A DNA stretch of 64,000 nt from a virus. Its lineage: Duplodnaviria; Caudoviricetes. Shown in pieces: positions 10,453 through 55,791 of this stretch. The notes under the pieces were generated by a model. The model worked only from the letters and a program-made list of their open reading frames with translations, did no database searches and was not told the origin of the DNA. How positions within the stretch are numbered: position 1 is the stretch's first letter; every line of letters begins with the position of its first letter. Where the stretch lies: IMG/VR virus record IMGVR_UViG_3300006805_000023. The stretch is one strand, 5' to 3'. Position numbers and translations under genes: made by a program.

Positions 10453-10600
10453 CGCTGGCAAGGTCACCCTGGCAGCAGTCCTGGGGTTCTTCGCCGGTGG
10501 ACCGGCTGGAGCCATCGTGGGCGCTGCTGGTGCCGAGGCCGAAAACATCAGACGCATCGAAAAAACACTAGGCAAAAACCCCCGAAAAGTCACCAAATGA
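10373..10600 (+). CDS. putative small lipoprotein
   Basis: MKPHLLLLLILPS-C signal-like N-terminus, Gly/Ala-rich hydrophobic segment. Confidence 0.55.
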   Translation: MKPHLLLLLILPSCAALKLTPAQAGLDAGKVTLAAVLGFFAGGPAGAIVGAAGAEAENIRRIEKTLGKNPRKVTK

Positions 10601-10968
10601 AGTTCCTCAGTCCAGCCATCGCAGCCATCCTCATAGCCATTGCGCTCTCCGCGTTCATCTACCTCATCGTCCTGTTTATCGAGGCGTGCCGAAGGTTCCG
10701 GCTGTGGTGGCTGACGTCAAACCTCCCAGAGGACGGATGCTGGATTCTGCAACTGCGCGACAACCGGTTCCTGTGCTACAGGCCGGACGGCACCGAGGAC
10801 TCTGATCACGAGATGGTGGCTGCCTGCCGACGCAACGGGATCTTGACCAAGAACCAGCTGCTAAAGGCGATGCGCGATCACCACTGGAGTCACCGGATCG
10901 ACATGCCATCCGACCCAGACCAGCAGGACCTCCTGGCCTACCAGTACGACCTGCAACGCCGGGTGTAA
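10597..10968 (+). CDS. hypothetical membrane protein
   Basis: N-terminal TM helix. Confidence 0.7.
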   Translation: MKFLSPAIAAILIAIALSAFIYLIVLFIEACRRFRLWWLTSNLPEDGCWILQLRDNRFLCYRPDGTEDSDHEMVAACRRNGILTKNQLLKAMRDHHWSHRIDMPSDPDQQDLLAYQYDLQRRV

Positions 10969-10969
10969 C

Positions 10970-10998
10970 TTGACAAACGCCAGAAGGCGTGATAGGTT
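10970..10998 (+). promoter_or_regulatory. sigma70-type promoter, leaderless
   Basis: TTGACA-N17-TAGGTT, ATG 11005 after 6 nt. Confidence 0.85.
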
Positions 10999-11004
10999 CT
11001 GTCT

Positions 11005-11340
11005 ATGAAACCCGCCGACGCCCTCGTTGAGTCCCTCCTGGAGAACCCAGACATCAAGATCGAGGTCAGTAAGACCTTCGCAACCGAATACACGGTAGTC
11101 GCCAAGTATCGCGGCAGGCAGGCCGCCAAGGCCTCCGTCAAACTCATCGGGAAGAATCGGCTGCGCATGGCCGGGATCACGGTCGATGAGGAGTTCCGGC
11201 GCAAGGGGATCGCGACGGCCATCTACCGCCACCTTGAAAAGATGACTGATCGCACCTTCCAGCGCGGCCTGAAGCCGACCCGCGATGGCTCGGCCTTTTG
11301 GAACTCTCCGAAACGCTCCTGGGGAGATCCAGTCAAGTAG
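11005..11340 (+). CDS. GNAT acetyltransferase with type-A tag
   Basis: ITVDEEFRRKGIATAIY acetyl-CoA motif A; MKPADALVESLLE. Confidence 0.8.
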   Translation: MKPADALVESLLENPDIKIEVSKTFATEYTVVAKYRGRQAAKASVKLIGKNRLRMAGITVDEEFRRKGIATAIYRHLEKMTDRTFQRGLKPTRDGSAFWNSPKRSWGDPVK

Positions 11341-11343
11341 GAC

Positions 11344-11372
11344 TTGACAGGGCTCAAACTGTATAATAAACT
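11344..11372 (+). promoter_or_regulatory. sigma70-type promoter, leaderless
   Basis: TTGACA-N17-TAAACT, ATG 11379 after 6 nt. Confidence 0.75.
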
Positions 11373-11378
11373 ACTCCC

Positions 11379-11828
11379 ATGAAACCGACTCCCCTGCTCT
11401 CTGTTAAAAAACGACCCGTTAAAATCACAAAACCACTCAATGACAATTGTGTTCTGGTTGGTCGGGGAGTGTTCTCCTGGTTTAGGTCGGAACGAACAAG
11501 CGACCGCTATGGCTCGTGTTACACCGAGGGCGAGATGTGGTTCCCGGAAGAGGGTCAACGCGGACAGCTGGTTGCCATCATCAACGAGGCTCGCAACTCA
11601 GGCCATATCGGAGACATAGGTCGCGGCATTTATCCCGTCAAACCCAAGGTCGGAGACGCCTATCTACTGGGCGAGGGCGCAGCCACTAAAGTGGAAGCCG
11701 AAGGAACCAGCATCGTGGCCTTCGGTCTCAAGCCTGACGATGGGCGTTCTCATGACTGGCTTAACCCTTACCACCTCTACCGCTGTCATGACTCCGTGGT
11801 CGAGCTGCGCTGGTATCCATCCAAATGA
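11379..11828 (+). CDS. hypothetical protein
   Basis: 149 aa, promoter-adjacent start. Confidence 0.7.
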   Translation: MKPTPLLSVKKRPVKITKPLNDNCVLVGRGVFSWFRSERTSDRYGSCYTEGEMWFPEEGQRGQLVAIINEARNSGHIGDIGRGIYPVKPKVGDAYLLGEGAATKVEAEGTSIVAFGLKPDDGRSHDWLNPYHLYRCHDSVVELRWYPSK

Positions 11829-12073
11829 GCACCCCCGAAACACCCCGCAAAGTCGTCTGGAAGCACTTCCCGACCGACCCGGCCCACAGCTATCCCTCCA
11901 TGGAGGGTCTCATCGGGCGCAAGACGTTCGCTTTCGTGGTGTTCTCATCCCCGATCAAGTGCACTGTCGGCCCTGAAGACAACCAGATTGAACTTCACAC
12001 CAACAACGCCGCCCAGGTCAAAGAGATCTGTCTAGCCCTCTACGACGTCATCACCAGTGGCGCGGGGACTTGA
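11825..12073 (+). CDS. hypothetical protein
   Basis: 82 aa, ATGA overlap. Confidence 0.65.
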   Translation: MSTPETPRKVVWKHFPTDPAHSYPSMEGLIGRKTFAFVVFSSPIKCTVGPEDNQIELHTNNAAQVKEICLALYDVITSGAGT

Positions 12074-12098
12074 CAAGCACCAGAACCTGTGTTATGCT
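12070..12098 (+). promoter_or_regulatory. sigma70-type promoter, leaderless
   Basis: TTGACA-N17-TATGCT, ATG 12105 after 6 nt. Confidence 0.9.
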
Positions 12099-12104
12099 TC
12101 TCGT

Positions 12105-12395
12105 ATGGAACCCATCTGGACACAAGACTCGCCGAAAGTGGCTGGCACTTACTGGAAGCGTGAAACCGGCTACCCGAACTGCACCCCGGTGGTCGTGACA
12201 ATCACAGAGACCGACCTCGACTCCTCCTACGGCAAGCTCGCCATGCACCGGACTCCGCAGGAGCGCAGGGAGAACACCCTAGCCATGCTTAGGCAACACA
12301 ACACCGCAGAGGTGGCGCTCAAGTTCATCGAAGGTCTCTCAGAGGAACACTGGCAGATCTGGTGGTGCGGCCCTCTCATTTACCCAGCTTTTTGA
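12105..12395 (+). CDS. hypothetical protein
   Basis: start moved to 12105. Confidence 0.7.
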   Translation: MEPIWTQDSPKVAGTYWKRETGYPNCTPVVVTITETDLDSSYGKLAMHRTPQERRENTLAMLRQHNTAEVALKFIEGLSEEHWQIWWCGPLIYPAF

Positions 12396-12398
12396 CTT

Positions 12399-12737
12399 AT
12401 GCTCAACGGAACCATCGACTTTCAGCAACGCGGCTTCACCTACAAGTTCACCTACGCCCAGACCGAGCAGGATGAGAACGGTGGCACGTTCACGCTCATC
12501 ACGACCCACGACGTCTATCCGGTCAACCGGTTCGATGGCACGCTCCACGACCTCATGCAGCTGTCCAACGAGCAACTCGCCCACCCCGATGTCAGCTTCT
12601 CGGAGTCACTCAGGGGGCTCAAGATGAAGTCCAGCTGGTGGAAGCCGACCGACCAGTTTTTCCTGGAAAACGAGCGCCAGTTCATCAAGATCCCGCTCGA
12701 ATTGTTCAACCTCATCCGCGAACGTCTCCTCTCCTAA
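12399..12737 (+). CDS. hypothetical protein
   Basis: 112 aa in operon. Confidence 0.7.
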   Translation: MLNGTIDFQQRGFTYKFTYAQTEQDENGGTFTLITTHDVYPVNRFDGTLHDLMQLSNEQLAHPDVSFSESLRGLKMKSSWWKPTDQFFLENERQFIKIPLELFNLIRERLLS

Positions 12738-12741
12738 CCCT

Positions 12742-13143
12742 ATGATCCACCGTGTAACCTGCCAGTCTGAAGGCTCCACCTTCGCCATCGAGTATGAAGC
12801 CGACAAGAGCGTGCGCGGTCGCACCTTCATGGTCACCCGTCACGACGCCGCCGGTACCATCAGGGACCGGTTCGAAGGAGTCGTGGGCGACCTGATCCGG
12901 CTTGCCATCGCGCACCGCTCCCGCTCCCTGGAGCGCATGGACCCGGAGATCGCCCTCACGGGAGGCCCGGTCGATCTGAGCAACTGCCCGTCCCCGTTCT
13001 CCTATGCGCACCACGGTGCCGAGATGGAGTCGCGCTGGTTCCACGGGCCACGCGAGTTCATCCTGAACCGCGACCGCTACACAGTCACTTTCCCCTTCAA
13101 GCTCCTTCAGGCCTTCGTCAACGACTACATCAAAAAGCCATGA
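12742..13143 (+). CDS. hypothetical protein
   Basis: C-terminal FPFKLLQAFVNDY shared with next gene. Confidence 0.7.
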   Translation: MIHRVTCQSEGSTFAIEYEADKSVRGRTFMVTRHDAAGTIRDRFEGVVGDLIRLAIAHRSRSLERMDPEIALTGGPVDLSNCPSPFSYAHHGAEMESRWFHGPREFILNRDRYTVTFPFKLLQAFVNDYIKKP

Positions 13144-13640
13144 TCCACCATCCAGCTCACCCAGGTTACCCCAACTACGTCAGCTGGGCCTACACAGACG
13201 AGGAGTCCGCAGGCCAGACCATCGACATCATGTGGAAGCAGCTGCCGCCGACCGAGCACGAGCTGATCCGTGGCTGGTTCAGGCTTACTAACAACGGCGA
13301 AACCGACTGGAACTTCCGAGGCGAGCTGGTTGACTTGGTCAGCACGGCGATTAATCACCGTGCTGCTTGTCTGTTCACCATGGAACCGCACAAGGCTCTG
13401 ATGGGTGGCATGCAAGACCTCAACGGCTGCCCGCCTCCGCCGAGCTACGGCTACCAAGGTCGTTCCATGAAAACGGTCTGGGCTGGACCTATGGGAGTGT
13501 TCATGCTCACCCGCGATGTCACCAAGGAGGTACCGGATTGCCCAATAGCTGAGTGGGAGACAGCCCTGGCCAAATTCGAGTTCCCGCCAGAGTTCCTCCA
13601 GGCCTTCGTGGATGACTATGTTAACTTCTGCCTGTCGTGA
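13140..13640 (+). CDS. hypothetical protein
   Basis: C-terminal FPPEFLQAFVDDY. Confidence 0.7.
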   Translation: MIHHPAHPGYPNYVSWAYTDEESAGQTIDIMWKQLPPTEHELIRGWFRLTNNGETDWNFRGELVDLVSTAINHRAACLFTMEPHKALMGGMQDLNGCPPPPSYGYQGRSMKTVWAGPMGVFMLTRDVTKEVPDCPIAEWETALAKFEFPPEFLQAFVDDYVNFCLS

Positions 13641-13652
13641 GTAACTGAGCAC

Positions 13653-13681
13653 TTGACAAACGCTAAAATCTGTGTTAGGTT
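13653..13681 (+). promoter_or_regulatory. sigma70-type promoter, leaderless
   Basis: TTGACA-N17-TAGGTT, ATG 13688 after 6 nt. Confidence 0.9.
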
Positions 13682-13687
13682 TCAAAC

Positions 13688-14140
13688 ATGGCCACCTCAA
13701 CACACTCCCTCTCCGGCATCTTCACCCACAATGGCAAGAACTTCCGGGTTCCGTCCACCATCAAGATCACGGTCAAGCCAGACCAGACCGTGGACGAAGC
13801 CGTCAAGGCGCTCATTCTAGCCAAGTATCCAGGGGCCGATTGCTCCGGCGTCCGGGCCACCGCGATCAAGCCAAAGGCCAAGAAGATCTCGGTCAACCCC
13901 CAACACGAGTACATCACACTGACGGCTCAATACGCTGACGGCACCATCCGCTTCACAGTTTCATGGAGGGGCTGCAAGCTCTCCGGCGACATCGGCGCTG
14001 ACACCGACGGCAAGGCGCTCCTGCAGCGGATCGACAAGCTCGGCAAGGACAAGGCACCGGTTGACCACATCGAGTCGCTGCGCGCTATGGCAGAGAAGTC
14101 CAACAACAAGGCTGAGTTCATCGCAGCCATCCACGCATAA
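13688..14140 (+). CDS. hypothetical basic protein
   Basis: 150 aa, Lys-rich. Confidence 0.75.
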   Translation: MATSTHSLSGIFTHNGKNFRVPSTIKITVKPDQTVDEAVKALILAKYPGADCSGVRATAIKPKAKKISVNPQHEYITLTAQYADGTIRFTVSWRGCKLSGDIGADTDGKALLQRIDKLGKDKAPVDHIESLRAMAEKSNNKAEFIAAIHA

Positions 14141-14147
14141 ACAAACC

Positions 14148-14453
14148 ATGATCGACATCGAAACCCTCACCAGCGACCAAAAGTCCCTGCTCCTCTACGT
14201 CGAGACCCGTGCTGTTGACCACTCCGGGAAGCTCAGGGATGACCAACTCAACGGCATCGACCGGGCCAACCTCAAGGCGTGGGACCGGGCCAACTTCGTG
14301 TCGTCCGACAAGATTCCGGCCAGTGGTCGTCAAAACGACGGCTGCTCGATGTGGGCATTCCTGTCGGACGAGGCATGGGAGGCCGCTGGCAAGCTGCGCC
14401 GTGCCAAGTCCAAGAGAATGTTCGAGAACCGCAACTGGCCTACCGGGAGATAG
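14148..14453 (+). CDS. hypothetical protein
   Basis: start moved to ATG 14148. Confidence 0.7.
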   Translation: MIDIETLTSDQKSLLLYVETRAVDHSGKLRDDQLNGIDRANLKAWDRANFVSSDKIPASGRQNDGCSMWAFLSDEAWEAAGKLRRAKSKRMFENRNWPTGR

Positions 14454-14456
14454 CCC

Positions 14457-14465
14457 CTAAGTATC
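14457..14465 (+). promoter_or_regulatory. putative late promoter
   Basis: CTAAGTATC, 5 nt before ATG 14471. Confidence 0.7.
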
Positions 14466-14470
14466 TGGGC

Positions 14471-15265
14471 ATGACGTCCGTTACCAACTCCCTTCTTTTC
14501 CTGACCGAGTCCTATTCACGGGAGAACGTAATGCTGTTCCAGTACCTGCAGAAAAAGCCACTCACCGTCGGCGACCTCTACTACGAGCTATCCGAGTGGC
14601 ACGGCTGGGACGACGCCCTGCAGGAGATCGGCCACAGTGCCGAGGAGCTGAGTGCTCTGGCTGCTGAAGACAACATGGACACCGTCTGGGAGATCTGTCA
14701 CAAGCTGGAGTCCTGGTTCGATCAGAACGAGTCGGCCAAAAACGACGCCGCGATGTTCCTGATGCGCGATTACCCGGACAACGCGCCGACCTGGGCTCAT
14801 CTGAGCCTCAACGGGAGCCGTCTGCTGCCATCTCAGACCTGGCTGGTGCACTGGACTGACGATGCTCTTGACATTTCCGCCGGAGGCTTCACGCACGGCA
14901 CCGACGACCCCACACGCCTGGGCCTCACACTCTACCGCAACAAGGAGTCCAAGAAGTTCGGTGGCTACAACTTCGCGTTCCGGGCCAACAGCCGCTACGC
15001 CTCCAACCCCGACCGGCGCTACGGCAGCGAGGTCGTGATCTTCCAGTCCAGCGGAGTTGACTGCTTCCACGGCGGCGATGACGAGGATCAGGTGATCTTC
15101 TGGGGTCAGTCGATCACCAGCAGGCCGATCGCCATCTCGCACCACACCGACGACGACAAGTGGGAGGTCCTCGGCAAGAAAGGCCGGGTCGTCGCCTTCG
15201 ACACCGTCGAGGAGTGCTTCAAGTGGGTGATCCAGCACTCCAGCAGCTACCGCAGTTCCTTATGA
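14471..15265 (+). CDS. possible ADP-ribosyltransferase-fold protein with type-B tag
   Basis: MTSVTNSLLFLTES; WLVHWT, GYNFAF, DDEDQVIFW resemble ART strand motifs. Confidence 0.5.
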   Translation: MTSVTNSLLFLTESYSRENVMLFQYLQKKPLTVGDLYYELSEWHGWDDALQEIGHSAEELSALAAEDNMDTVWEICHKLESWFDQNESAKNDAAMFLMRDYPDNAPTWAHLSLNGSRLLPSQTWLVHWTDDALDISAGGFTHGTDDPTRLGLTLYRNKESKKFGGYNFAFRANSRYASNPDRRYGSEVVIFQSSGVDCFHGGDDEDQVIFWGQSITSRPIAISHHTDDDKWEVLGKKGRVVAFDTVEECFKWVIQHSSSYRSSL

Positions 15266-33580: not shown

Positions 33581-34468
33581 ATGAACCCGCCCACTGACCC
33601 CGCTGTTGTCCAGGAACTTATCCTGGCTTGTGCCAACCTGCTTGATTACGCCGAAATGCGAGTCGCCCACGATGGTTCGATGACGGTCGATGACATCATG
33701 TGGCGTCTGAAAAACGTCATCCCGAAGACCGGCAAAATCATGAAGGCCCACCACATCGGCTGCAACCAGACGACCCGCGAGGTAGACCTCTACCGGATTC
33801 GCGCCCTGCTGGCACGCATCGCCCCACCTGAGACGACCAAGATTGAGTTCCGGGGCAAAGCCAAGGACATTGGGGCCTGGGCTGAAATCATGCGGGAGGA
33901 GCTTGGAGTGCACCATGAGACAGTCGTTGTCACCGGCCCTGATGAAGAGACTATCACCTACAACATCGCCTTCGACCAGTGGGGGAAGGTGCACGCCAAG
34001 CACTGGAATCGCCCGTATGCTACTGGGCTGTCTGGAATCCGCTGTTGGAAAGACATCTTGTCGTTTACCTTCCCGAACGGCAACGGGGTCGGCCAATACA
34101 TCAAACCTGACTACCGGACCTGGAGTGACATCATGCAGGGAGGCCCAAAGCTGGCCGACATCCCGTGCACCATTGAGATCGTGATTTGGGATAAACCACG
34201 GTCGCTCATGTGGTGGTCGGACTTCCTGCGCGCTAAGAAGCTGACCCTTGAGATCATCGCGAAGGACGGCAAGCCCAGCTCAGTCATCAAGTGCCAGCTC
34301 ACTTATCGGAAGTGGAAGGAGATCTACGACGAGATCTGGGACAAACCCTTCCCAGAGACGGAGTACACGTGGGGCCAGTGCACCAACGGCTTCTCATTCC
34401 CGGACTTCCCACGCGGCATCCACCCAGCCGGTGGAGGCTCCATCAAGGCTCCGCTACTTGACAAGTGA
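33581..34468 (+). CDS. hypothetical protein, Trp-rich
   Basis: 295 aa. Confidence 0.75.
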   Translation: MNPPTDPAVVQELILACANLLDYAEMRVAHDGSMTVDDIMWRLKNVIPKTGKIMKAHHIGCNQTTREVDLYRIRALLARIAPPETTKIEFRGKAKDIGAWAEIMREELGVHHETVVVTGPDEETITYNIAFDQWGKVHAKHWNRPYATGLSGIRCWKDILSFTFPNGNGVGQYIKPDYRTWSDIMQGGPKLADIPCTIEIVIWDKPRSLMWWSDFLRAKKLTLEIIAKDGKPSSVIKCQLTYRKWKEIYDEIWDKPFPETEYTWGQCTNGFSFPDFPRGIHPAGGGSIKAPLLDK

Positions 34469-34486
34469 CAAGAGCTGTGCTAAGTT
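34458..34486 (+). promoter_or_regulatory. sigma70-type promoter, leaderless
   Basis: TTGACA-N17-TAAGTT, ATG 34492 after 5 nt. Confidence 0.9.
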
Positions 34487-34491
34487 CCCCA

Positions 34492-35076
34492 ATGAGCAAC
34501 ATCATCCCCTTCGTCCTCCCCGTCGTCGCAACCGCCCCTAAGACCGTCGTCACCCTCGCCGGACCAAAGCGGTTCCACACGCCCCAAGAGATCCGCGACA
34601 TCCTGAAGGCCGCCGGAGCCAACGCCTCCAAGGTCTCGGTCAAGGTCAACAGCTCTGCCAACTACATCACCGTGACAGTGCGCGATCACAAGGTCCTCCC
34701 TTTGGTCGAGAAGATCGCAGCTGACCTGGACTCCTGGAAGTCTGATATGGGCGACTGCGCATCGGGTCAGGCGGTCAACGTTGAGCTCTCCCACGCAGCC
34801 AAGGAGGCAATGGCCGCCCCGTTCATGGACGTCATCAACTACGTGGCGTCCCATGCGATCCCAGTGATGGGCCAGGGCCAGGAGATCGCGCCTGATATCC
34901 TGATCTGGCACAACACTCAGGGCCTTTGGCTCGAAACCCGCTCCGGCGTGCGTCGTTCTTACATCTGGACCAGAAACGTCGTAGCACAGGAGCCGTCGGC
35001 CCTCGCCAAGCTGGCGCTCGATCTGGCCAGCCTCACCAACGTCGTCGAAACCGAAAAAGCCACTAAAGCAGCATGA
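34492..35076 (+). CDS. hypothetical protein
   Basis: start moved to 34492. Confidence 0.75.
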   Translation: MSNIIPFVLPVVATAPKTVVTLAGPKRFHTPQEIRDILKAAGANASKVSVKVNSSANYITVTVRDHKVLPLVEKIAADLDSWKSDMGDCASGQAVNVELSHAAKEAMAAPFMDVINYVASHAIPVMGQGQEIAPDILIWHNTQGLWLETRSGVRRSYIWTRNVVAQEPSALAKLALDLASLTNVVETEKATKAA

Positions 35077-35270
35077 GACAAGAAAAACAGATCACCGCAG
35101 AAACCCGGCTGATCCGCCTTAGCTGGTGGCTCAGAAGGCAACCGCTCGACCCGCAGTTCAACGTAAAGATGGAGGCAGCCGAGGCCTTCAAAAAGCGCCT
35201 TGCCGCCTGGGTTTCGAGTGAAAACGCTGGTGAGGTAGCCCCAACGTTCCACCAAGCCACAACCGTATGA
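35073..35270 (+). CDS. hypothetical protein
   Basis: 65 aa, ATGA overlaps. Confidence 0.65.
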   Translation: MRQEKQITAETRLIRLSWWLRRQPLDPQFNVKMEAAEAFKKRLAAWVSSENAGEVAPTFHQATTV

Positions 35271-35695
35271 TGCCACGCACCCAAGTCAAACTAGGAACCG
35301 TCAAACCGGGATGCCGCGTCTTTGTCTCCGAGGACAACGAGACGGCTGCCTTTATCCGCTCCACCACGCCACTGGAGGACACTATGTGGGACGAGGATGA
35401 TGAGGTCTGGATCGAGACCGCGACCGACCCTCGCCTGCTGATCACCGTTTACTGCAAGCACGTCGATCCCTCAGTGCGCTTCAACGGGGACGCCATCAAC
35501 ATCGTCAACCCGACGTCCATGCTGTTCAAGATCTTCAAGATGACGCCGTATCCGGAGCCCAAGAAGAAGGTCGATAACCTGTTGATCTACGGGACGGTCT
35601 GGCTGCAGAACCTGGAAGAGAAACGGTTCCTGATCCTCGACGCTGGTGCAGCCCGTGACGTCTATTTGTCCGATTTGATGCCTTACACTCAGTGA
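35267..35695 (+). CDS. hypothetical protein
   Basis: 142 aa. Confidence 0.7.
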   Translation: MMPRTQVKLGTVKPGCRVFVSEDNETAAFIRSTTPLEDTMWDEDDEVWIETATDPRLLITVYCKHVDPSVRFNGDAINIVNPTSMLFKIFKMTPYPEPKKKVDNLLIYGTVWLQNLEEKRFLILDAGAARDVYLSDLMPYTQ

Positions 35696-35701
35696 GTTCT
35701 T

Positions 35702-35989
35702 ATGGAAATGAGAGTACGATCCAGGTCCAAGATAGTTTACGACGCCATCACGTTTGACGAACTGGTCGAACACGGCAGAAAATCCGGTGCCTCGCTGACA
35801 CGTGGGATGCCGTGGTCGTTCACTTACAAGGGGGCCAGCGTGACCCACGAGACCGACACCTGCTACATCGTAGCCGGGGTGAAGTTCCATCAGGGCGACG
35901 TTCTGGTCAGCGACCTGGGTGACGTTGATATGACCCCAGCGGTGTTCAGCCGTAGTGATTTTGAAGCCAGCTACGAGCCCTGCCTATGA
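35702..35989 (+). CDS. hypothetical phage protein
   Basis: 95 aa. Confidence 0.7.
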   Translation: MEMRVRSRSKIVYDAITFDELVEHGRKSGASLTRGMPWSFTYKGASVTHETDTCYIVAGVKFHQGDVLVSDLGDVDMTPAVFSRSDFEASYEPCL

Positions 35990-36261
35990 AAGACCGCCCC
36001 TTCTACTACGTTAACCGAGATGTTACCTTAGCCTCGACAGCCGAGTCGATCCTGGAGGATGCGCCCTCTGACGGGCTCGTGATCCGCAAGGACGAAAAGA
36101 TCAACATCCTCGACAGGAAGGAGCTGGAGGACGGCTTGGTCGCCAGGAAGGTCAGGGCCGAGAACCCGCCACGCCTAGGCTGGATGACCGCTGACCACAT
36201 CGACATCGGCGACCAGTGGCGTGACAGCCGCTACGACGGTCGTTACAACTCAGCCCTTTGA
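35986..36261 (+). CDS. hypothetical SH3-like protein
   Basis: 91 aa; KINILD..KVR..GWM. Confidence 0.6.
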   Translation: MKDRPFYYVNRDVTLASTAESILEDAPSDGLVIRKDEKINILDRKELEDGLVARKVRAENPPRLGWMTADHIDIGDQWRDSRYDGRYNSAL

Positions 36262-36501
36262 GGGGCCGAACATCGGCGGAAGCGGTTGCTCAGGCGCGAT
36301 CTTGTACCACCTTTCAAGGTCCAACTGAGCCCCTTCGCTCCAACGGACCTTGAGCTTACGAGCGTTGGCAACGACCGGCGTGGACACGATCTCAAGATCA
36401 ACGCTGGTGCTAGGATACCAGATAGCGTGTGTCTCTGGCTTGACGACTTTGGGAGCGAAGATGGCTCCGAACATGGTGGCGAGGAATCCGCGTCGTTTCA
36501 T
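36250..36501 (-). CDS. twin-arginine-like leader fused to gp23-type major capsid protein fragment
   Basis: MKRRGFLATMFGAIFAP + VDLEIVSTPVVANARKLKVRWSEGAQLDL. Confidence 0.7.
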   Translation of the reverse strand: MKRRGFLATMFGAIFAPKVVKPETHAIWYPSTSVDLEIVSTPVVANARKLKVRWSEGAQLDLERWYKIAPEQPLPPMFGPSKG

Positions 36502-36614
36502 TTGTCTTTGATGGTGTCCAGGATTGCGTTGATCTCGCAGATGCAGGTCGTGGCTCCACAGCGGCAGCGTGCTGGTGGGAGGAGCCAGTCGAAGAGGCGC
36601 TTTAGCAGTTTCAT
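36498..36614 (-). CDS. 38-aa Cys-rich peptide
   Basis: hand-translated MKLLKRLFDWLLPPARCRCGATTCICEINAILDTIKDK; ATGA overlaps at both ends. Confidence 0.6.
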   Translation of the reverse strand: MKLLKRLFDWLLPPARCRCGATTCICEINAILDTIKDK

Positions 36615-36913
36615 AAAGTGATCTTCCAGCGTGATGGTGTGCTGGCTGTGCAGAAAGGGATCTCGACGCGCCTCCTAGGTGAGGACGTGCTGACGAAGTT
36701 CATGTGGAAGATCAGACCAGTCGGACCGTCCATCGGCTGGACCTTAACGAGTTCACTGGCGAGCAGGTCTGGGTGAATCCGTCGGATCAGCGCGATCGGG
36801 AACTCCAGGAGCTTTGGCTTCGGGGTGGACAGCCGGACGACTGCCGGAGCCAGGACGGCACCGAGCAGCGTAGTAAGGAAACCGCGTCTTCTCATCCCTG
36901 GAAGAAAGCTCAA
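36611..36913 (-). CDS. twin-arginine-like leader fused to gp23-type major capsid protein fragment
   Basis: MRRRGFLTTLLGAVLAP + IALIRRIHPDLLASELVKVQPMDGPTGLIF. Confidence 0.75.
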   Translation of the reverse strand: MSFLPGMRRRGFLTTLLGAVLAPAVVRLSTPKPKLLEFPIALIRRIHPDLLASELVKVQPMDGPTGLIFHMNFVSTSSPRRRVEIPFCTASTPSRWKITL

Positions 36914-37245
36914 CCGAAGTTGTCTTCCAGGTAGGTTGAAAGACCAGCCCTAGCCTCGATGGCGTCCTCGTCCTGGGAGGCGATCGAGGCCGCTCCGTCG
37001 GCCCCGTAGCCCTTGCGCCGTGCGGTCCTGGAGGCAAAGCCCCACATCACGTCGCGCAGGTCCTGGGGAGTTGGGGCTAGGGCCAGCTTGCGGATGTCTC
37101 TTTGTGGCCACTGGCCCTCCTTGAAGTACTCGATAGCAGCCTTGCGCATCTTCTCGAAATCGGACTTCGTGTCCGTGGGCTGAGGAGCCGGGTCTTCTCC
37201 AGCCAGGAGGGTTTCAACGAGGGCGTCGGGTGTCTGTGGTCTCAT
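36910..37245 (-). CDS. hypothetical protein with type-A tag
   Basis: MRPQTPDALVETLLAGED. Confidence 0.75.
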   Translation of the reverse strand: MRPQTPDALVETLLAGEDPAPQPTDTKSDFEKMRKAAIEYFKEGQWPQRDIRKLALAPTPQDLRDVMWGFASRTARRKGYGADGAASIASQDEDAIEARAGLSTYLEDNFG

Positions 37246-37253
37246 GAGTGTTC

Positions 37254-37262
37254 AATAATTAA
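37254..37262 (-). promoter_or_regulatory. putative late promoter (variant)
   Basis: TTAATTATT, 8 nt before ATG 37245. Confidence 0.5.
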
Positions 37263-37531
37263 CGGTAAGCTCTGCGGTGGGCTTCGGCCATCCTGCCTCC
37301 GGCGTGGATCGCGGCAAGGTGAGGCGGGAGAGGGTAGGCGGGGACGTAGCTGGGGCACTCTGACCCGGCCATAGGCTCTTGACCGGGGCGCATCGAGGTG
37401 CCGCACTGGAAGAACATAAACGACCACACCAAATCCCGACCGCACCAATCAGGAACCAGTCTGGACTCGCGCTTCACGCCAGCCTTGCAGTAAGGGCAGC
37501 GCTTCGGTGTGGCTGGCTTGCGTGGGGTCAT
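37259..37531 (-). CDS. small Cys-rich hypothetical protein
   Basis: CPYC, FQCG, SECP. Confidence 0.65.
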   Translation of the reverse strand: MTPRKPATPKRCPYCKAGVKRESRLVPDWCGRDLVWSFMFFQCGTSMRPGQEPMAGSECPSYVPAYPLPPHLAAIHAGGRMAEAHRRAYR

Positions 37532-37842
37532 CCTTCGTCGTCCTCCACTTCTGGGTCGAGCCAGCTGCCAAAGCGCATGTAAAAGGCAGCCCTGCCTTGG
37601 GCGGTCAGCTTCCCGAAGGCCTCTTTGATGGCTTTGCGATAACCGGCGTTCCAGACGGACGGGCTGTGGTCCACGTCGGCCCGGTTGACCCGGACGTCGG
37701 CACCCTGCTCGTTGAGCCAGCGTAGCATGTCGGGCAGCTCGTCGGTGGCGCGAGCCCAGGAGGAGGTGTCGAGCGGGAAGCGTGCCAGGAAGGCATCAAC
37801 GAGGTCGGAGATCTGTTGTTCGGTGAGGGAGTCGGTCTTCAT
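37528..37842 (-). CDS. hypothetical protein
   Basis: 104 aa. Confidence 0.7.
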   Translation of the reverse strand: MKTDSLTEQQISDLVDAFLARFPLDTSSWARATDELPDMLRWLNEQGADVRVNRADVDHSPSVWNAGYRKAIKEAFGKLTAQGRAAFYMRFGSWLDPEVEDDEG

Positions 37843-37845
37843 GGC

Positions 37846-38136
37846 TTAGAGGGAGAAGGTTTGTGGGGCGAGGGTGGTGCGGGTCTGGGTCTCAGAGTCC
37901 CAAGTCGTGAGGGTGACGACCAGCTTGACTGCGCCACGGAAGTAATCACGGCGGATCATGCCCTGCGCCTTGCGGGCGTAGCCGTCGAGGTTGGATTTGA
38001 CGGTCTGGCCGTAGCTGGCTGCTCCGCCGGTGAGGCCGAGACTTTTGCCGGAGGCGTCCTGACAATCGACCTTGCAGTCGGAGCAGCGGACCTTGGAGTT
38101 GAGAACGGCAGGGGCTAGAGTGTAGGAGGTGGTCAT
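37846..38136 (-). CDS. hypothetical protein
   Basis: start moved to 38136. Confidence 0.7.
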   Translation of the reverse strand: MTTSYTLAPAVLNSKVRCSDCKVDCQDASGKSLGLTGGAASYGQTVKSNLDGYARKAQGMIRRDYFRGAVKLVVTLTTWDSETQTRTTLAPQTFSL

Positions 38137-38141
38137 ATAGG

Positions 38142-38170
38142 AACGTAACACAGATCCTGACGTTTGTCAA
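38142..38170 (-). promoter_or_regulatory. sigma70-type promoter, leaderless
   Basis: TTGACA-N17-TACGTT, ATG 38136 after 5 nt. Confidence 0.9.
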
Positions 38171-38185
38171 GTCCTCCTAGCTTCA

Positions 38186-38194
38186 GTAGTTATC
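38186..38194 (+). promoter_or_regulatory. putative late promoter
   Basis: GTAGTTATC, 3 nt before GTG 38198. Confidence 0.7.
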
Positions 38195-38197
38195 GAC

Positions 38198-38536
38198 GTG
38201 ATCTCAGTCAAAAACGCTCTCTCATCCGCTCTGTTGGAAGCTTCCGGAAAACCCACACGGGACGAGGTCAAGGACTTCATCCTTAAGCAGACCGGCGTGT
38301 CCCTGGAGGCGTGCGACCAGCTTAAGCCATCAAGGAGGTACTACAACTTCAAGCTGAAGGACAGGGCTTCAGAGAGCGGAGAGCTTGATGTGATCCTCAG
38401 GTTTCTGCCGAGGCAGACTCTGATCAAGAAGGTTGAGCCCAACGTTACGGACGACCGCCCAGTCTTTGGTAGCGCTCGTCCTCCCTGGAACCAGAGCCAT
38501 AAAGCCAATCTGCTTCTTGGTCTCGTCCTCCCATAG
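38198..38536 (+). CDS. hypothetical protein with type-B tag
   Basis: MISVKNALSSALLE. Confidence 0.65.
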   Translation: MISVKNALSSALLEASGKPTRDEVKDFILKQTGVSLEACDQLKPSRRYYNFKLKDRASESGELDVILRFLPRQTLIKKVEPNVTDDRPVFGSARPPWNQSHKANLLLGLVLP

Positions 38537-43289: not shown

Positions 43290-44594
43290 ATGGACCTCTT
43301 GCCGAACCTCCCGCCCAACCTCCCACCGCCGGAACTCTCAACCCCAGAGCAGAGAAAGGCAGCCTTCATGCGTGCCATGGGGGAGCTGCACAAGCACCAG
43401 AAGGCCATTGTGGGTCTGACCAACCACGTCCGGCTCCTGCAGACCCTCGCCAAGGGCACCATGAAGGAGCGCATGCTGGTGGCTCTCCAAAACGCTGGCC
43501 CTCTTTATCAAACGCTTTGCCCACGCAAGTACCGCGACATCCCGACGCACGCTTCGCCGCGCAACCTGCTCATTATGTGCGTCCTTGCAGCTCTCGTGTT
43601 CAGGGACTATGGGGCCGTCAACGGCTTTGACCTGAAGAACATGCGGCCCGAGCAATACGCGGACCTCATGAAGCGGTCGGATTCGATGTCGCATGGTTAC
43701 GCGAAGGAGAACAGCCTGAGGCTGTGGCGTGTGATGGGCGACATGATCGAGAATGACTCGCCAACCTACTACCTCGACCAGGAGGCTTCCGAGGAAATGC
43801 TGGAGACCCAGTGTGACGACCTCAAGATGACGTGGGACGACTTCGACTGGCCTCACCCGGTCTTCATGTTGATGCCTCCGATTGGCTTGTACAAGAACAG
43901 CCCGCTGCTCATTCTGGCACACCGTGACGACCAGTACGTGACCTTCACAGGTCTGACAGAGGAGATGGTGGACTACAACCAGAAGCTGTTCGCCACCGAG
44001 TTTCCGATCAAGAGCGAGATCGGAGCTTCGGTCAAGAGCTTGATGGACGCCAAATACCACAGGCTCATAGGAGGAGACAAGATCCGGGACATGGAGGACG
44101 GCCTCAGGGATTTCATCAACAAGACCATGCAGGTGTGCGTCAACGCCCTGCTGGCCATGGTGGCGGAGCCCAAGTTTGAGGAGCTGGAGAAGTCAGGCGC
44201 GCAACCACGCCCAGCCAGTCAAGAGCGCCGTGCGCGTGACCCGTCTGCCCTCTGGAATCCGACCTTCTTCAAGATGGAACGGACCAGACAGGCGTCGGAG
44301 GGGAGTAGCGATGGTAAGGGCGGTCACCGACGCCCCCACCCACGGCGAGCGCACTGGAAGAGCGTCTGGCTGGACGGCAGCGAGGACACCCAACTGGAAC
44401 CGGGGAAACGTGCCAGGCACACCCAAGACCAGCGGGTCGCCCATTGGGTCACGAGCATTGAAGGTGACGTCGTGACCCTCAAAAACGCCGCTGGTGAGGA
44501 GAAGTCCGTGCACCGCTCCGAGGTGAAGCCGTCCAAGGTCAAGTTCCGGTGGATCAAACGCCGGATCGTCGGGCTCAAGAACCACCTAGCTTGA
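43290..44594 (+). CDS. hypothetical phage protein
   Basis: 434 aa; C-terminal HPRRAHW ... RWIKRRIVG motif. Confidence 0.75.
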   Translation: MDLLPNLPPNLPPPELSTPEQRKAAFMRAMGELHKHQKAIVGLTNHVRLLQTLAKGTMKERMLVALQNAGPLYQTLCPRKYRDIPTHASPRNLLIMCVLAALVFRDYGAVNGFDLKNMRPEQYADLMKRSDSMSHGYAKENSLRLWRVMGDMIENDSPTYYLDQEASEEMLETQCDDLKMTWDDFDWPHPVFMLMPPIGLYKNSPLLILAHRDDQYVTFTGLTEEMVDYNQKLFATEFPIKSEIGASVKSLMDAKYHRLIGGDKIRDMEDGLRDFINKTMQVCVNALLAMVAEPKFEELEKSGAQPRPASQERRARDPSALWNPTFFKMERTRQASEGSSDGKGGHRRPHPRRAHWKSVWLDGSEDTQLEPGKRARHTQDQRVAHWVTSIEGDVVTLKNAAGEEKSVHRSEVKPSKVKFRWIKRRIVGLKNHLA

Positions 44595-51594: not shown

Positions 51595-53259
51595 TCAGCG
51601 CTTGTGGTAAATGAAGCAAAGCTTCTCAGAGCCCCAGACTTTCCGGAGCAGATTCGTCTCCGCGTAGGCCGCCTCAGTGGTTGACATCTTTTGAGCCCTG
51701 CCCCAGACGGTGCGCTTGTGAACGACCCAGCCGAGCTGATCCACGTAGTAGTAGTCGGGAGCGACCGTGTGACTGAACCGGAAGTTGCTGGCCCGGTAGA
51801 GGCCGCCTGAGTGGCCCATCGTGGTGTCCGCGTAGGTCACAACGTCCTGACCGCTAAGCTTGAGACAACGCGACAAAAACCACGATCCAAGGTTCTTGAC
51901 CTGGTAGGCCGGGTCAAGCCAGAACCGCGTCAGCTCCACGGCGTCCTTGTATTTGAGGGTCTGCTCGTTGCGCTGGAACGGCCCAAACGAACACGCCCCG
52001 ATGACGGTTTCACCCGAGAACAGCCCAAGATGTTGTTTGCCACGGCTTGACCCCAGGTAATGACGCGAGTAAACGACCTGCGACTCCCGGAACGTGATCT
52101 CGCGAATCGCCAGAGCCTTGAAGTCAACTTCGTGCAACGCTGGCTTGTCAGCCAGGCCTAGCATCTCTTTGATCCGGTGCAGCACGCGCCCCTCGGTGTG
52201 GAACTCAAGCTCCCAGATCACTGCCAGCCTGACACCGGGGCAATAGCGCTCCACGTAGGTCGCCTTAGCCTTGTCACGCGGACCGGCGGCTGGCTTGCCA
52301 TGCCAGTACTCCCCGTGGCACTCGATCAAAAGGTTGTGGTCTGGAACCCAGACGTCGAAGTTCCAGGGTCCGATCGGATGCTCGGACGCCCACTTGATGC
52401 CAAGCGAATCCAGGATAGCAAACACTGCCTTGTTGAGAGATGACACCACTGGTTGGTTAGCGCGGGCCACAGCCATCTTGGCCTTGACAACCTCGCTCTG
52501 CATGGCGTCCCTGACGCTCTGCTTAAACTCTCCAGTAGCGCCAAGCTCGCGTGACTTCGCACAAAAACGCTCCACCCAGACAGGGTCGTCCCAGTAGGAC
52601 TGCAGCCGGTGCTGCAGCTCAGGATCGGCCATCGCTTCCAGGTGCCTGCGCCGAACCTCCGGGTTGTCCCAGTTGGCCTTCACAATGCCTGTCAGGCGCT
52701 CCCGGTACTCTGGGTTGGCCCAGCACTGCTGCGACATTGTGGACATAGCAGCCGCGTAGTCCGGGTCCTGCCAGCGCACCAGGGTGGCGGTGCGCAGCCG
52801 CTCGCGCAGGCTGATCGACCGCATCGCTAGCAAATGCCGGTCGCGCACCTCTGGGTTCGAGTACGACTCCTTGAGAGTCATAGCCATGTTGGCGCGGTAT
52901 ACCGGGTCTGCAGCACGCCTGCGGATCATGGTCAGCCAGCCCTCATCCTGTGACCGCTTTCTGATGGCGGCCCGCATCCGACCAGAAGTTTCTGGATCAG
53001 TCCAGGCCGCCTTGCTCTGCTGCGACAGGCGCTGGCGCTCTTCGGAAGTGGCTGGCACGCCCTTGTTATGTGGGACCACCCGTCCTTCAGCCTGTGCCTC
53101 CTTGAAACCGGCCTGCTGTTTCTCCCGATAGTCGGGTGACTTTATGACGCACTTAAAACAACGGGTCTCGCCCTTGCGCTTGCGGCGGGACACGGTCATG
53201 CGGTTCACGATCTCTATCGTTCCGCACGCCGAACATGTCACTGTGTAAACCTTAGCCAC
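51595..53259 (-). CDS. Zn-ribbon + helical repeats + DUF559/Vsr-like nuclease + Mom-like GNAT fusion
   Basis: CSAC/CFKC; W.(D/N)P.YR repeats; FDVW..IECHGEYWHG; VELTRFW..GSWFLSRCLK..TYAD..GHSGGLYRASNF. Confidence 0.75.
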   Translation of the reverse strand: MAKVYTVTCSACGTIEIVNRMTVSRRKRKGETRCFKCVIKSPDYREKQQAGFKEAQAEGRVVPHNKGVPATSEERQRLSQQSKAAWTDPETSGRMRAAIRKRSQDEGWLTMIRRRAADPVYRANMAMTLKESYSNPEVRDRHLLAMRSISLRERLRTATLVRWQDPDYAAAMSTMSQQCWANPEYRERLTGIVKANWDNPEVRRRHLEAMADPELQHRLQSYWDDPVWVERFCAKSRELGATGEFKQSVRDAMQSEVVKAKMAVARANQPVVSSLNKAVFAILDSLGIKWASEHPIGPWNFDVWVPDHNLLIECHGEYWHGKPAAGPRDKAKATYVERYCPGVRLAVIWELEFHTEGRVLHRIKEMLGLADKPALHEVDFKALAIREITFRESQVVYSRHYLGSSRGKQHLGLFSGETVIGACSFGPFQRNEQTLKYKDAVELTRFWLDPAYQVKNLGSWFLSRCLKLSGQDVVTYADTTMGHSGGLYRASNFRFSHTVAPDYYYVDQLGWVVHKRTVWGRAQKMSTTEAAYAETNLLRKVWGSEKLCFIYHKR

Positions 53260-53298: not shown

Positions 53299-55791
53299 TT
53301 ACTTCTGTTTCTTGGCTTTCCTGATGTCGCGAGCCATCTCCTCGACTCCCTCGTCGTCATCCTGGCGCTTGCGCTTGCGTGGATTCTCTTCCTCGTCCTC
53401 TTCCTCCGGCATTGGCTCAGAACCAATTGACGAAAGGTACATGTAAGCTGGGTCGCAGCGGCAGATGATGCGGTTGTTGCCACCTTCATTACGGGAAGCG
53501 ATCGGGATGAGGTGCAGAGTGCCCTCTTTCTTGTACCTACGCAATGCGTAACAATAGTCACAAATCCCAACCCACTCGAAGCTCGCCGCCATGTGTTTCA
53601 TACCTGGACGGTTGGATGACTGCTCCTCACGGTTAGAACGGGCTGCCGTCCAGAGTGGGAACTTCCATTTCTGAGCTACTGAGCGCAGGTCGGTCGCGAT
53701 GATGACCTTCTCCAAGTAGTCCTTCTCCTTCTTCTGGTCGGACCCCACAAGGTTCAGGTAGTCGATGACTACCATGCCGAACACGATGCCGTGCTCGCGC
53801 TGCATCATTTCGAGGTAGTCATCCAGCACCTTGGGTGTGAACTTGTAGGCGTCAAAGTACTTGATGACGATGTTCTTGCCTGGCTGATAGATGTTCTTGA
53901 CGCGGATCTTCCAGTAGTCGATGAACCCCTCTGGGTTGCGCATCATGTCGTGCTTGGTCCGCATCGTGGTGCGCACTCCAAACCGCAGGAGCTGAAGATG
54001 CTCCGACAGCTCCAGGGTGATGTAAAGAGTGTTGACCCCCACGCCGCGCTTCACGGCGTTAAAGGCGAAGTTGAGCATCGTCCCACTGTTGTGTGTGACC
54101 GTAAAGTCGCCGAGGAGGTAGCGATGGTTGCCATCAGTCCTCCAGCCGCACCAGTCGCCCTCCCCAACTGGCTCCACTTTGATCGGTGTCCGGTCTGTCA
54201 CCTTCACGGAGTCGGTGCCGCGCTTGCGTGCCAGCTTGGTTGGGATCTCGCTGACCTTGCCCTGGATGAGGGTCCGGAACGCGGTGTGATAGGTCTTGGT
54301 GCCGTCTGGGTGAACACAGGACGACCTGAACTCGACAACATGTGCTCTGAACCCAAGGCTGCGGGCCAGCCAACAGGCGTCGTCGCAGAGAGTCCGGTTG
54401 GTGTTGTTGAACGTGAACCCATTCACGCGCAGGAAATGACCATCGCTGTCGATCATCCCAGCCAGCACCTGGAGCCTGACCTCGCGACTGTTAAACTTGT
54501 AGAGGTCGGGCACGTGCTTCAGGCTGCCAGCCCCACCCAAACCAACCGAGCGTAGAGCTTGTTTCAGCGGGTTAAAACCGGGGGAGTCAGTAACCAAGTT
54601 GACGTTTGAACATTTCGCTCTCACCCTAGCACCGGTCTTATCCACTCTGAACTTCTGCTGCTCACTAATTCTGAGCCCCCACTGAGAAGCCAGGCCGCTT
54701 AGATAATCCTTTACCTCGTGATCGTCATCTGCACTACAAATCCCAGTGTTCCGTATCACTCCGTCGCCAAGCCAAAGCCCAATGTAGTAGGGGCAGACCA
54801 GAGTGGCCTGAGACGGAAACTCGACGCCAGCCTTGAAGCCCTGCCAGGTCCGCTTGAACCACGGCTTCTGTTTGGCGTATTCCTCAGCAGTCATCTCCAG
54901 GGTCTGTTCAGTGTGATACCTGGCTTGCTGCGGGACCTCTGTATCAGGGCGTTTCAAGACGAGCTTGTGCTCAGCAGTGACTGTGTAGGAGTCGCCGTTG
55001 GCCTGAGTCACCTTAAACATCTGTCCTCGCCCGGTGCCAAGCTCCAACACCCGACGAGGAGTTGAGTCATCCCCCATCAGCAAGTCACCGAGCTTCACTT
55101 CTTTGGCGAGCTTGATACTCCCGTCGAACATCATAACCGGCTGATTTGGTTCCGAGCACTTGAAGCCCTTAGGCGGTGCCATGAGCATGCAAAGGTCGCC
55201 CTGTCTTGGTCCCCCGCCCAGCTCGGCGTCAAAGTGGACCAACCCGGTTGGGATCGCGGGTCGCCACTTAGGGTCGGTCTCGTTCCTCACCATGGTCTCT
55301 GTAGCGCCGATCACCAGACTTCCCGGATCGGTCTTCTTGGTGCCAGCCATCAGAGCCACCCGGAAGCGGTCAACCAGTGCTGCGTCGATCTTACCGGCCT
55401 GCAGGTCATCCAGGGTCTCGACCACCGCTGACTGAAGGGCCTTTCCTTGCAAGAACTGGGCCAGTCGTGCTGCCACGTAGGCCGGTGAAGCACTAGGGGG
55501 CTTACAGATCTCCTCGACGTGGTCCAGAAGCGTCTGGCGCTGTCTCTTTTCGCGCTCATTGCCAGCGGCGAAGGCCACCAGAATGTGGTCACGCAGGACG
55601 GACCGTGACGGGATCGCCCGATAGGTCCTGTAGTAGTCCTGGGCCATCCCCCACAACATCTGGGACGAAGCGTCCAGCAGATACTCCGGTTTGAGCGAGG
55701 ACTCGCATCCTAGGAACAGTCCCTGATCGGCCAGCACGGTGCGGACTACCTCAAGCTCAAAATCAGGATCTTCGGTCAGTAGGGTTGCCAT
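53299..55791 (-). CDS. dnaB: replicative DnaB/gp41-like helicase with intein
   Basis: PTG...DAELGGG, Walker A APPKGFK|S, YITLE, VVIDY, WTAARSNR. Confidence 0.9.
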   Translation of the reverse strand: MATLLTEDPDFELEVVRTVLADQGLFLGCESSLKPEYLLDASSQMLWGMAQDYYRTYRAIPSRSVLRDHILVAFAAGNEREKRQRQTLLDHVEEICKPPSASPAYVAARLAQFLQGKALQSAVVETLDDLQAGKIDAALVDRFRVALMAGTKKTDPGSLVIGATETMVRNETDPKWRPAIPTGLVHFDAELGGGPRQGDLCMLMAPPKGFKCSEPNQPVMMFDGSIKLAKEVKLGDLLMGDDSTPRRVLELGTGRGQMFKVTQANGDSYTVTAEHKLVLKRPDTEVPQQARYHTEQTLEMTAEEYAKQKPWFKRTWQGFKAGVEFPSQATLVCPYYIGLWLGDGVIRNTGICSADDDHEVKDYLSGLASQWGLRISEQQKFRVDKTGARVRAKCSNVNLVTDSPGFNPLKQALRSVGLGGAGSLKHVPDLYKFNSREVRLQVLAGMIDSDGHFLRVNGFTFNNTNRTLCDDACWLARSLGFRAHVVEFRSSCVHPDGTKTYHTAFRTLIQGKVSEIPTKLARKRGTDSVKVTDRTPIKVEPVGEGDWCGWRTDGNHRYLLGDFTVTHNSGTMLNFAFNAVKRGVGVNTLYITLELSEHLQLLRFGVRTTMRTKHDMMRNPEGFIDYWKIRVKNIYQPGKNIVIKYFDAYKFTPKVLDDYLEMMQREHGIVFGMVVIDYLNLVGSDQKKEKDYLEKVIIATDLRSVAQKWKFPLWTAARSNREEQSSNRPGMKHMAASFEWVGICDYCYALRRYKKEGTLHLIPIASRNEGGNNRIICRCDPAYMYLSSIGSEPMPEEEDEEENPRKRKRQDDDEGVEEMARDIRKAKKQK
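54088..55158 (-). mobile_element. intein with LAGLIDADG homing endonuclease (357 aa)
   Basis: N-terminal Cys (CSEPNQ), C-terminal THN followed by Ser; IGLWLGDG and LAGMIDSDG motifs. Confidence 0.92.

Follow-up and report, generated by a model that had tools for sequence, protein, structure and literature searches.

The subject of this analysis is a cassette of three small genes in a 64-kb stretch of DNA from an uncultured virus of the Caudoviricetes (IMG/VR record IMGVR_UViG_3300006805_000023), hereafter the window, to whose positions all coordinates refer. The source contig, which is 218 kb long with a GC content of ~59%, belongs to a large uncultured phage, and for one protein encoded in the window the closest matches among cultured phages, at 26-29% identity, are in giant T4-like phages, those of Aeromonas and Vibrio among them. 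A minus-strand run of small genes closes with three tightly packed open reading frames (ORFs), all on that strand, which encode two proteins that we call fragA and fragB and, between them, a Cys-rich peptide (Table 1). A first-pass annotation had described fragA and fragB as twin-arginine-like leaders fused to pieces of gp23, the major capsid protein of T4, with a 38-aa Cys-rich peptide in the middle. Both ORFs, their leaders and their capsid-like stretches do lie on the minus strand where that annotation placed them, as does the peptide with its four Cys at 36614-36498. Its start codon for fragA (TTG 36913) is less convincing: ATG 36895, which gives a 94-aa protein matching the ortholog and the family described below, is the likelier start, and the TTG would add six residues. 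Similarly, the claim that all of these genes are coupled by ATGA overlaps holds for the junctions of the Cys peptide gene with fragA and with fragB, but not for the upstream gene, which ends 14 nt before ATG 36895 and would overlap fragA (in a TTGA) only if the TTG were the start. In a 143-nt contig from a wastewater run (2x depth), position 36501 is joined to 36618 via nine different letters; this near relative thus lacks the gene for the Cys peptide, and its fragB comes almost immediately after fragA.

Table 1. Features of the cassette and of the gene upstream of it, in window positions.
Feature	Position	Strand	Basis and content
fragA gene (P0005, 94 aa)	36611..36895	-	ORF reading; Tat-type leader, conserved N-terminal block of gp23 (Gol region) and beginning of linker 1 of the insertion domain
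fragA leader, residues 1-21	36833..36895	-	Read directly: MRRR, GFL, 16-residue uncharged stretch, Arg
fragA gp23-derived part, residues ~31-88	36632..36805	-	BLASTP to full-length capsid proteins
Cys-rich peptide gene (38 aa, four Cys, CxC-x4-CxC)	36498..36614	-	ORF reading; ATGA overlap with both neighbours
fragB gene (P0002, 83 aa)	36250..36501	-	ORF reading; Tat-type leader, gp23 P-domain strand and start of spine helix
fragB leader, residues 1-19	36445..36501	-	Read directly: MKRR, GFL, 13-residue uncharged stretch, Lys
fragB gp23-derived part, residues ~34-74	36280..36402	-	BLASTP and HMM matches to capsid proteins; Pfam profile 132-165
Upstream 111-aa gene, same minus-strand run (context)	36910..37245	-	N-terminus MRPQTPDALVETLLAGE common to other genes

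As for the leaders, fragA opens with MRRRGFLTTLLGAVLAPAVV and fragB with MKRRGFLATMFGAIFAPKVV, 14 of 24 residues being identical (BLASTP E 1e-8), and these two are the only RRGFL-type leaders in the window. Each contains a twin-arginine motif, MRRRGFLT in fragA and MKRRGFLA in fragB, the textbook core of signals for the twin-arginine translocation (Tat) pathway being (S/T)RRxFLK. The motif is followed by an uncharged run, of 16 residues with a mean Kyte-Doolittle hydropathy of 2.0 in fragA, where it ends at an Arg, and of 13 residues with a mean of 1.6 in fragB, where it ends at a Lys. A possible signal-peptidase site, T-H-A, occupies residues 24-26 of fragB, and the fragB ortholog has A-P-A at the same place. 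The reading of the window leaders as probable Tat signals draws on their motif, on the composition of the hydrophobic stretch and on the consensus of a wider family. A derivation of the leader from gp23 sequence just upstream of the capsid block was considered and rejected: in BLASTP to the capsid proteins of C48C1 and S-H9-2, residues 34-65 are the only ones that align. When modeled with AlphaFold2 from a 52-row alignment, the leader of fragA is a helix from residue 3 to 21 (predicted local distance difference test, 86-89), followed by short helices at 34-40 and 42-52 over the IRR..P.L.A block and then by coil, with a predicted template modeling score of 0.23. The model fits a peptide that has no fold of its own and that might be structured only on a partner. 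The Tat pathway tolerates small unstructured cargo.

Small proteins with the same type of leader and no gp23 block are also encoded on unrelated IMG/VR phage contigs (L003:6001-6213, L015:5280-5550, L016:2914-3330 and L019:5420-5840), their leaders including MKRRGFLATLVG, MNRRRFLSFLGL and MNRRGFFSWLGL. The gene on L003 sits between the genes for the terminase subunits.

The capsid-like part of fragA is readily recognised. It matches the Pfam family Gp23 (PF07068) over profile positions 9-47 with an E value of 5.9e-9 and 36.2 bits, above the curated cut-off of 24.4, as well as PHROG 138, the major head protein (E 1.1e-8), and in a tblastn search it matched the capsid gene of ~2,200 T4-like phages. 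A two-sequence profile run against solved structures equates its residues 34-68 with residues 96-130 of T4 gp23, while BLASTP to closer full-length capsid proteins aligns residues 31-88 (e.g., with 81-134 of P0139 and 76-134 of P0149). Since the similarity spans residues 31 to ~88, nearly the whole mature part of fragA is capsid-derived.

For fragB, the match to Pfam Gp23 is marginal (E 0.05, 13.4 bits, profile positions 132-165), tblastn against phage records gave no match, and sequence searches of the PDB with fragB or its ortholog returned chance-level matches only. The ortholog, P0007, which is encoded on a related contig described below, matches the same Pfam family with an E value of 3.1e-5 and 24.0 bits (profile positions 133-176). 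Moreover, fragB, the ortholog and a joint hidden Markov model (HMM) match all 14 full-length gp23-type proteins tested, at one consistent place that corresponds to residues ~240-285 of these 467-514-aa proteins. Relative to the fragA-equivalent block it is ~160 residues further downstream, with the two blocks at 82-119 (fragA) and 241-281 (fragB) of P0122, for instance. When each mature sequence was shuffled 300 times, none of the shuffles reached the observed score. Because fragA is significant alone, and because of the score of the fragB ortholog, the colinear matches and the shuffles, we consider both to be genuine colinear segments of gp23. The first-pass annotation, which had joined a Tat-like leader to a conserved gp23 block in each protein, with the blocks in native order, and had named the lack of significant gp23 similarity as what would count against this, is thus borne out by the leader motif and the capsid matches. 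Neither protein approaches a complete HK97-type fold, the matches covering positions 9-47 and 132-165 of a 376-position profile in proteins of 94 and 83 aa. By these alignments, fragA and fragB are derived fragments, not capsid proteins. The very end of fragB (36250-36285) reads P-M-F-G-P-S-x-G and that of its ortholog (L001:12490-12520) P-V-F-D-P-T-A-G. Both resemble the core of the fragA block, P-M-D-G-P-T-G, with P, F, P and G invariant between the orthologs, a resemblance that may be coincidental or may mark another small capsid motif.

In the capsid protein, the pieces lie on either side of the insertion domain, which in T4 is the stretch between them: fragA carries the most conserved N-terminal block, running into linker 1, and fragB carries the return strand with the first turns of the spine helix. 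[quoted passage not shown] A complex prediction for mature fragA with mature fragB gave no support and counts neither way.

Next, we looked at conservation in relatives. A word-indexed search of 5.8 billion proteins returned one short relative of fragA (P0006, 95 aa, 68% identical), carried by a 138-kb contig of an NCBI metagenome assembly (L001) in which all three cassette genes are intact, the orthologs of the Cys peptide (P0008) and of fragB (P0007) being 84 and 40% identical. Synteny between the two contigs is kept on both sides of the cassette, in a different order. The difference involves an opposite-strand block of about five genes, which follows fragB in the window (33581-36261, plus strand) and lies between fragA and the Cys-fragB pair in L001 (10285-11882), a local rearrangement beside two paralogous leaders that leaves the Cys-fragB pair adjacent. 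The N-terminal tag of the gene upstream of fragA in the window sits on different bodies, being MRPQTPDALVETLLAGE in the 111-aa protein of the window and MKPQTADTLVETLLAGG in P0010 of L001 (L001:9577-9915), which is otherwise a homolog of the 104-aa product of another window gene (37842-37528, minus strand).

By the Nei-Gojobori method, the ratio of nonsynonymous to synonymous substitution rates (dN/dS) of fragA comes to 0.17, the smallest value among the 11 genes compared; the Cys peptide has 0.25 and fragB 0.45, and neighbours range from 0.31 to 0.45. These are rough values since they come from one genome pair with a dS near or above 1. The leader is conserved between the relatives as protein and not as DNA, which, together with the intact frames, argues that the genes are not decaying. 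Searches with the other two products were less productive. The Cys peptide has no family match in Pfam, PHROGs or NCBIfam and no relatives in IMG/VR, and a search for relatives of fragB found only the unrelated leader protein of L003. Word-indexed protein searches brought up nothing beyond the single ortholog. Atlas neighbours scored below 0.9 and were taken as leads only.

The build of fragA recurs widely. A profile of the two fragA orthologs was run against 1.84 billion cluster representatives and gave 152 matches at E<=1e-3, mostly of 60-125 aa and many of them aligned from profile position 1, that is, from the leader. We counted as family members those of 60-125 aa with an N-terminal RRxF[LF] leader and the gp23 block ..RR..P.L.A..L..VQPM.GP.G..F 43-70 residues after the RR, which left at least 53 cluster representatives with a median length of 90 aa. 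fragA (P0005) has this build and is the top match of its own profile, while fragB reads as a family member with a different cargo, with counterparts in L001, L008 and L009. Every one of 52 members matches Pfam Gp23 (best E 7.5e-19), and across them the VQPM-GPTG core of the capsid block is nearly invariant. Over this block, some are ~79% identical to genuine cyanophage gp23. Tandem second genes for a leader plus a capsid piece recur in other T4-like contigs. In L009, which also has homologs of gp59, gp32, gp51, gp53 and gp2, the mini-gene is overlapped by a second one whose product matches Pfam TAT_signal (E 0.0024, below the cut-off) and positions 161-196 of the Gp23 profile, in the spine helix; in L008, a second leader gene lies directly behind the first. 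The same L009 contig has a tmRNA-like gene at 201-587, called by ARAGORN (tag ANDNALIEDFALAA).

None of this family surfaced in cultured phages, since tblastn of five members against 50,697 phage records matched capsid genes only. Two apparent cultured carriers, RsoM2USA and B23, were discarded because their matches lie inside capsid-type genes of 411 and 465 aa. In L021 (108.8 kb, ~51% complete), which among IMG/VR contigs was the only one found to carry a member of the family, a full-length Gp23 match is absent. The combination of leader and gp23 block is not represented as a gene family in Pfam, PHROGs or NCBIfam, and such a gene class did not turn up in the open-access full-text literature. 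The mini-proteins are apparently a previously undescribed family.

Together, these findings show that fragA and fragB are intact genes under selection and belong to a widespread family of T4-type-phage mini-proteins. They also bear on the idea that the cassette holds the functionless remnants of a broken second capsid gene, such as a gp24-like paralogue. The pieces are short and colinear, and of the capsid fold neither the middle nor the C-terminal two thirds are present, as such an origin would have it. However, each piece has its own start and a paralogous leader, all the ORFs are intact in the relative at 40-84% identity with dN/dS below 0.5, and the same build is found elsewhere in 53 or more clusters, so that this explanation is largely refuted and very improbable. 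The first-pass annotation had itself named decay without purifying selection as the outcome that would undo its reading, and had proposed a search of related genomes for the same leader-plus-fragment fusions and their dN/dS as a check. The fusions were found, with dN/dS at the values given above for fragA and fragB, and the intact ORFs, the purifying selection in the relative and the large like-built family speak against remnants.

Anchored on the arginines, the leader of the family reads M-N-R(96%)-R(100%)-x-F(89%)-[L/F/I](100%)-K(49%)-T-L-[L/F]-G-A, which is the Tat core RRxF[LF]K. The uncharged stretch that follows has a median length of 15.5 residues (interquartile range 13-18) and a mean hydropathy of 1.86; in 40 of 54 leaders it is succeeded by K or R, and in only 9 of 54 does it reach the 20 residues or more of a typical membrane span. 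Twelve of the 52 members match Pfam TAT_signal at E<=0.1 (best E 4.9e-5). No other part of the family's proteins is as well conserved or as canonical as the leader, and the same leader type occurs on the unrelated small phage proteins without a capsid block (L003, L015, L016/L019). Both observations would suit a true export of these proteins for a role in the periplasm or envelope, such as superinfection exclusion or lysis timing (compare the small T4 envelope proteins), for which the capsid gene would have been mere raw sequence and mimicry irrelevant; the general tolerance of Tat for small unstructured peptides would allow it too. We nevertheless hold this to be unlikely, because the capsid block is strongly constrained, as seen in the low dN/dS of fragA and in the near invariance of its core among the 52 members, and because the recurrence of capsid pieces in tandem partners argues that capsid identity matters.

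We then asked when these genes might be expressed. The first-pass annotation had seen a tagged gene with a late-type motif upstream. The motif could not be confirmed, as no T4-type TATAAATA lies upstream of the cassette or of any relative copy examined, and late co-expression with the capsid is not supported. A promoter motif in front of the tagged gene, GTTAATTATTGAA, recurs no more often than chance would have it, and no sigma-70-like site passes the scan in window positions 35900-38400. Among the relatives' copies, the mini-gene of L006 lies within a 25-tRNA array, directly after tRNA-Glu and tRNA-Gln and behind a near-consensus sigma-70 promoter, and in L009 a sigma-70-like site with a 10/12 match is found ~230 nt upstream of the mini-gene. 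These copies give a hint of early expression. Sequencing reads matched to the stretch yielded DNA-like contigs of low depth only, with none from two raw RNA runs, which says nothing for or against expression. In L006, a freshwater phage contig, the 25 tRNA genes occupy ~11 kb (3881-15148), with HNH endonuclease genes interspersed.

The surroundings of the cassette in the window are of an accessory kind, with an AcrVA2-like protein and GNATs nearby. The former is a 434-aa protein (43290-44594, plus strand) with a precomputed Pfam match to AcrVA2-like PF26125, found also in L001 (1550-2935), and its gene, ~6.5 kb from the cassette, is possibly of anti-CRISPR type. Further away, an 830-aa DnaB-type replicative helicase (53299-55791, minus strand) contains an intein with a Hint domain (E 7e-15) and a LAGLIDADG homing endonuclease, and a 554-aa fusion (51595-53259, minus strand) joins a Vsr/MTES_1575-like nuclease region to a Mom-like GNAT domain (Mom family, E 8e-20) and also matches homing-endonuclease PHROGs.

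A further possibility is that the pieces bind gp23 itself. They could take the place of the E-loop-equivalent linker or of the N-terminal block of a neighbouring subunit and thereby influence, at the membrane, how the phage assembles its own heads, or poison assembly in co-infecting relatives. Such a role would agree with the way in which both pieces flank the insertion domain, whose linkers make inter-subunit contacts, with the different capsid pieces found in tandem in different phages, and with the ~79% identity to cyanophage gp23, which suggests recent copying from the capsid gene. Set against this are the accessory nature of the genes, none of which was found in cultured T4-like phages by tblastn, the context of the relatives' copies, which looks early and not late, and the risk of self-poisoning; a cytoplasmic role in assembly would, moreover, leave the Tat leader unexplained. 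We regard binding to gp23 as an improbable alternative, on a level with the envelope role.

The explanation that we favour overall, with a probability that we put at about one in two, is host-directed mimicry by Tat-led capsid segments acting as a decoy or sink. The leader would bring a small, largely unstructured peptide to the Tat translocon of the host, in the inner membrane, and the mini-protein would there be exported or kept membrane-associated. Its capsid segment would then serve as a mimic epitope and occupy whatever partner otherwise binds the corresponding part of gp23 before assembly. We lean towards a partner that is a host factor or a capsid sensor, which would make the mini-protein a counter-defence decoy or sink, and away from the phage's own assembly line, because no copy was found in cultured T4-like phages, the neighbours are accessory and the relatives' copies look early. 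All three elements, the targeting to Tat, the mimicry and the nature of the partner, are inferred.

Several points weigh against host-directed mimicry. The best-known binder of the fragA block is EF-Tu and the best-known reader of the complex is the Lit protease (PMC3014915), and in E. coli Gol as a free peptide switches Lit on instead of inhibiting it (PMC3014915), so that a cytoplasmic decoy could backfire. Export, for its part, would remove the decoy from cytoplasmic sensors. To these come the roughness of the dN/dS estimates and two negatives in the leaders: no AxA-type signal-peptidase site is recognisable in fragA or its ortholog, and neither window protein nor either ortholog matches Pfam TAT_signal (PF10518) or the NCBIfam Tat model (TIGR01409), even at E<=10.

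The leader negatives raise the question of whether the leader is a Tat signal at all. It could be no more than a look-alike, either a short anchor in the membrane or a hydrophobic helix for interactions, and leave the peptides on the cytoplasmic side, which is compatible with the other readings. Apart from the failure of the window copies to match the Tat models and the missing AxA-type site, fragA has three basic residues just after its hydrophobic stretch, and only the Met and one more residue precede the motif. Yet RRxF[LF]K is near invariant in 53 clusters, a dozen of the 52 members do match Pfam TAT_signal, and the median hydrophobic stretch is too short for most membrane spans. This makes an anchor or interaction helix, in our estimate, less probable again than either gp23 binding or an envelope role.

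Host-directed mimicry can be taken a step further. Lit has been described as a membrane protein. Conceivably, many phages pre-load infected cells with Tat-tagged capsid segments that the host recognises, in this case the Gol-type block of gp23, so that a sensor or factor would be moved to the membrane or out of the cytoplasm, or the epitope would be presented to a membrane-bound Lit-like protease without EF-Tu, and capsid-sensing abortive infection would be blunted. This extension is speculative and we think it doubtful; if true, it would amount to a general and previously unrecognised counter-defence principle, that of exported decoy epitopes.

If capsid mimicry itself is true, the mini-proteins would represent a class of accessory genes built from recycled pieces of the phage's own coat protein and a host export signal. 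fragA isolates the very gp23 block whose binding to EF-Tu and triggering of the suicide protease Lit are known. The family is thus a handle on why the Gol block is so conserved and on what it binds in hosts other than E. coli, as well as on how phages evade capsid-sensing immunity, and it offers naturally occurring, minimal capsid epitopes for studies of binding. Many of the small ORFs annotated as "Gp23" in metagenomes, which are usually dismissed as fragments, may also find their explanation in this family.

Among known systems, the closest parallel is that of Gol and Lit, from T4 and the prophage e14, since the T4 gp23 stretch with which fragA aligns (96-130) corresponds to the Gol region, which we take to be approximately residues 94-122. 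[quoted passage not shown] There, however, Gol is internal to a 521-aa capsid protein and is a trigger of immunity, whereas in fragA the block stands alone behind an export-type leader and is known from sequence alone.

With Tat signals (PF10518, TIGR01409; e.g., those of TorA, NapA and SufI), the leaders share the RRxFL core, right at the N-terminus, and a moderately hydrophobic stretch of 13-16 residues, rich in Gly, Ala and Thr, that ends in Pro and is followed by a basic residue. They differ in that the carriers in the window are phage-encoded and their cargo comes from a cytoplasmic structural protein, in a family of 60-125 aa. The region before the motif is minimal, the window copies are missed by the HMMs, and fragA is without a clear cleavage site.

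A looser comparison is with capsid-directed proteins of satellites and prophages: CpmB of the Staphylococcus aureus pathogenicity islands (SaPI), which competes at a scaffold site, Ccm from phage-inducible chromosomal islands (PICI), which has a whole capsid-like fold, and the tail assembly blocker Tab. Like the mini-proteins, these are small and accessory, and mimicry of, or competition with, a phage structural protein is their known or presumed mode of action. They are satellite- or prophage-encoded, in contrast to the mini-proteins, which belong to a large lytic-type T4-like phage, and to our knowledge there is neither a short, linear capsid-protein copy nor a carrier of a Tat-type leader among them.

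Finally, the homology to gp23 and gp24 themselves (PF07068) is clear over two blocks in native order, but only ~58 and ~41 residues of the 400-520 that make up the HK97 fold of these proteins are represented, the A domain and the insertion domain being absent and the P domain incomplete. The parts of the mini-proteins, that is, Tat signals, gp23 and the Gol region, were already known; what appears to be new is their combination as a gene family.

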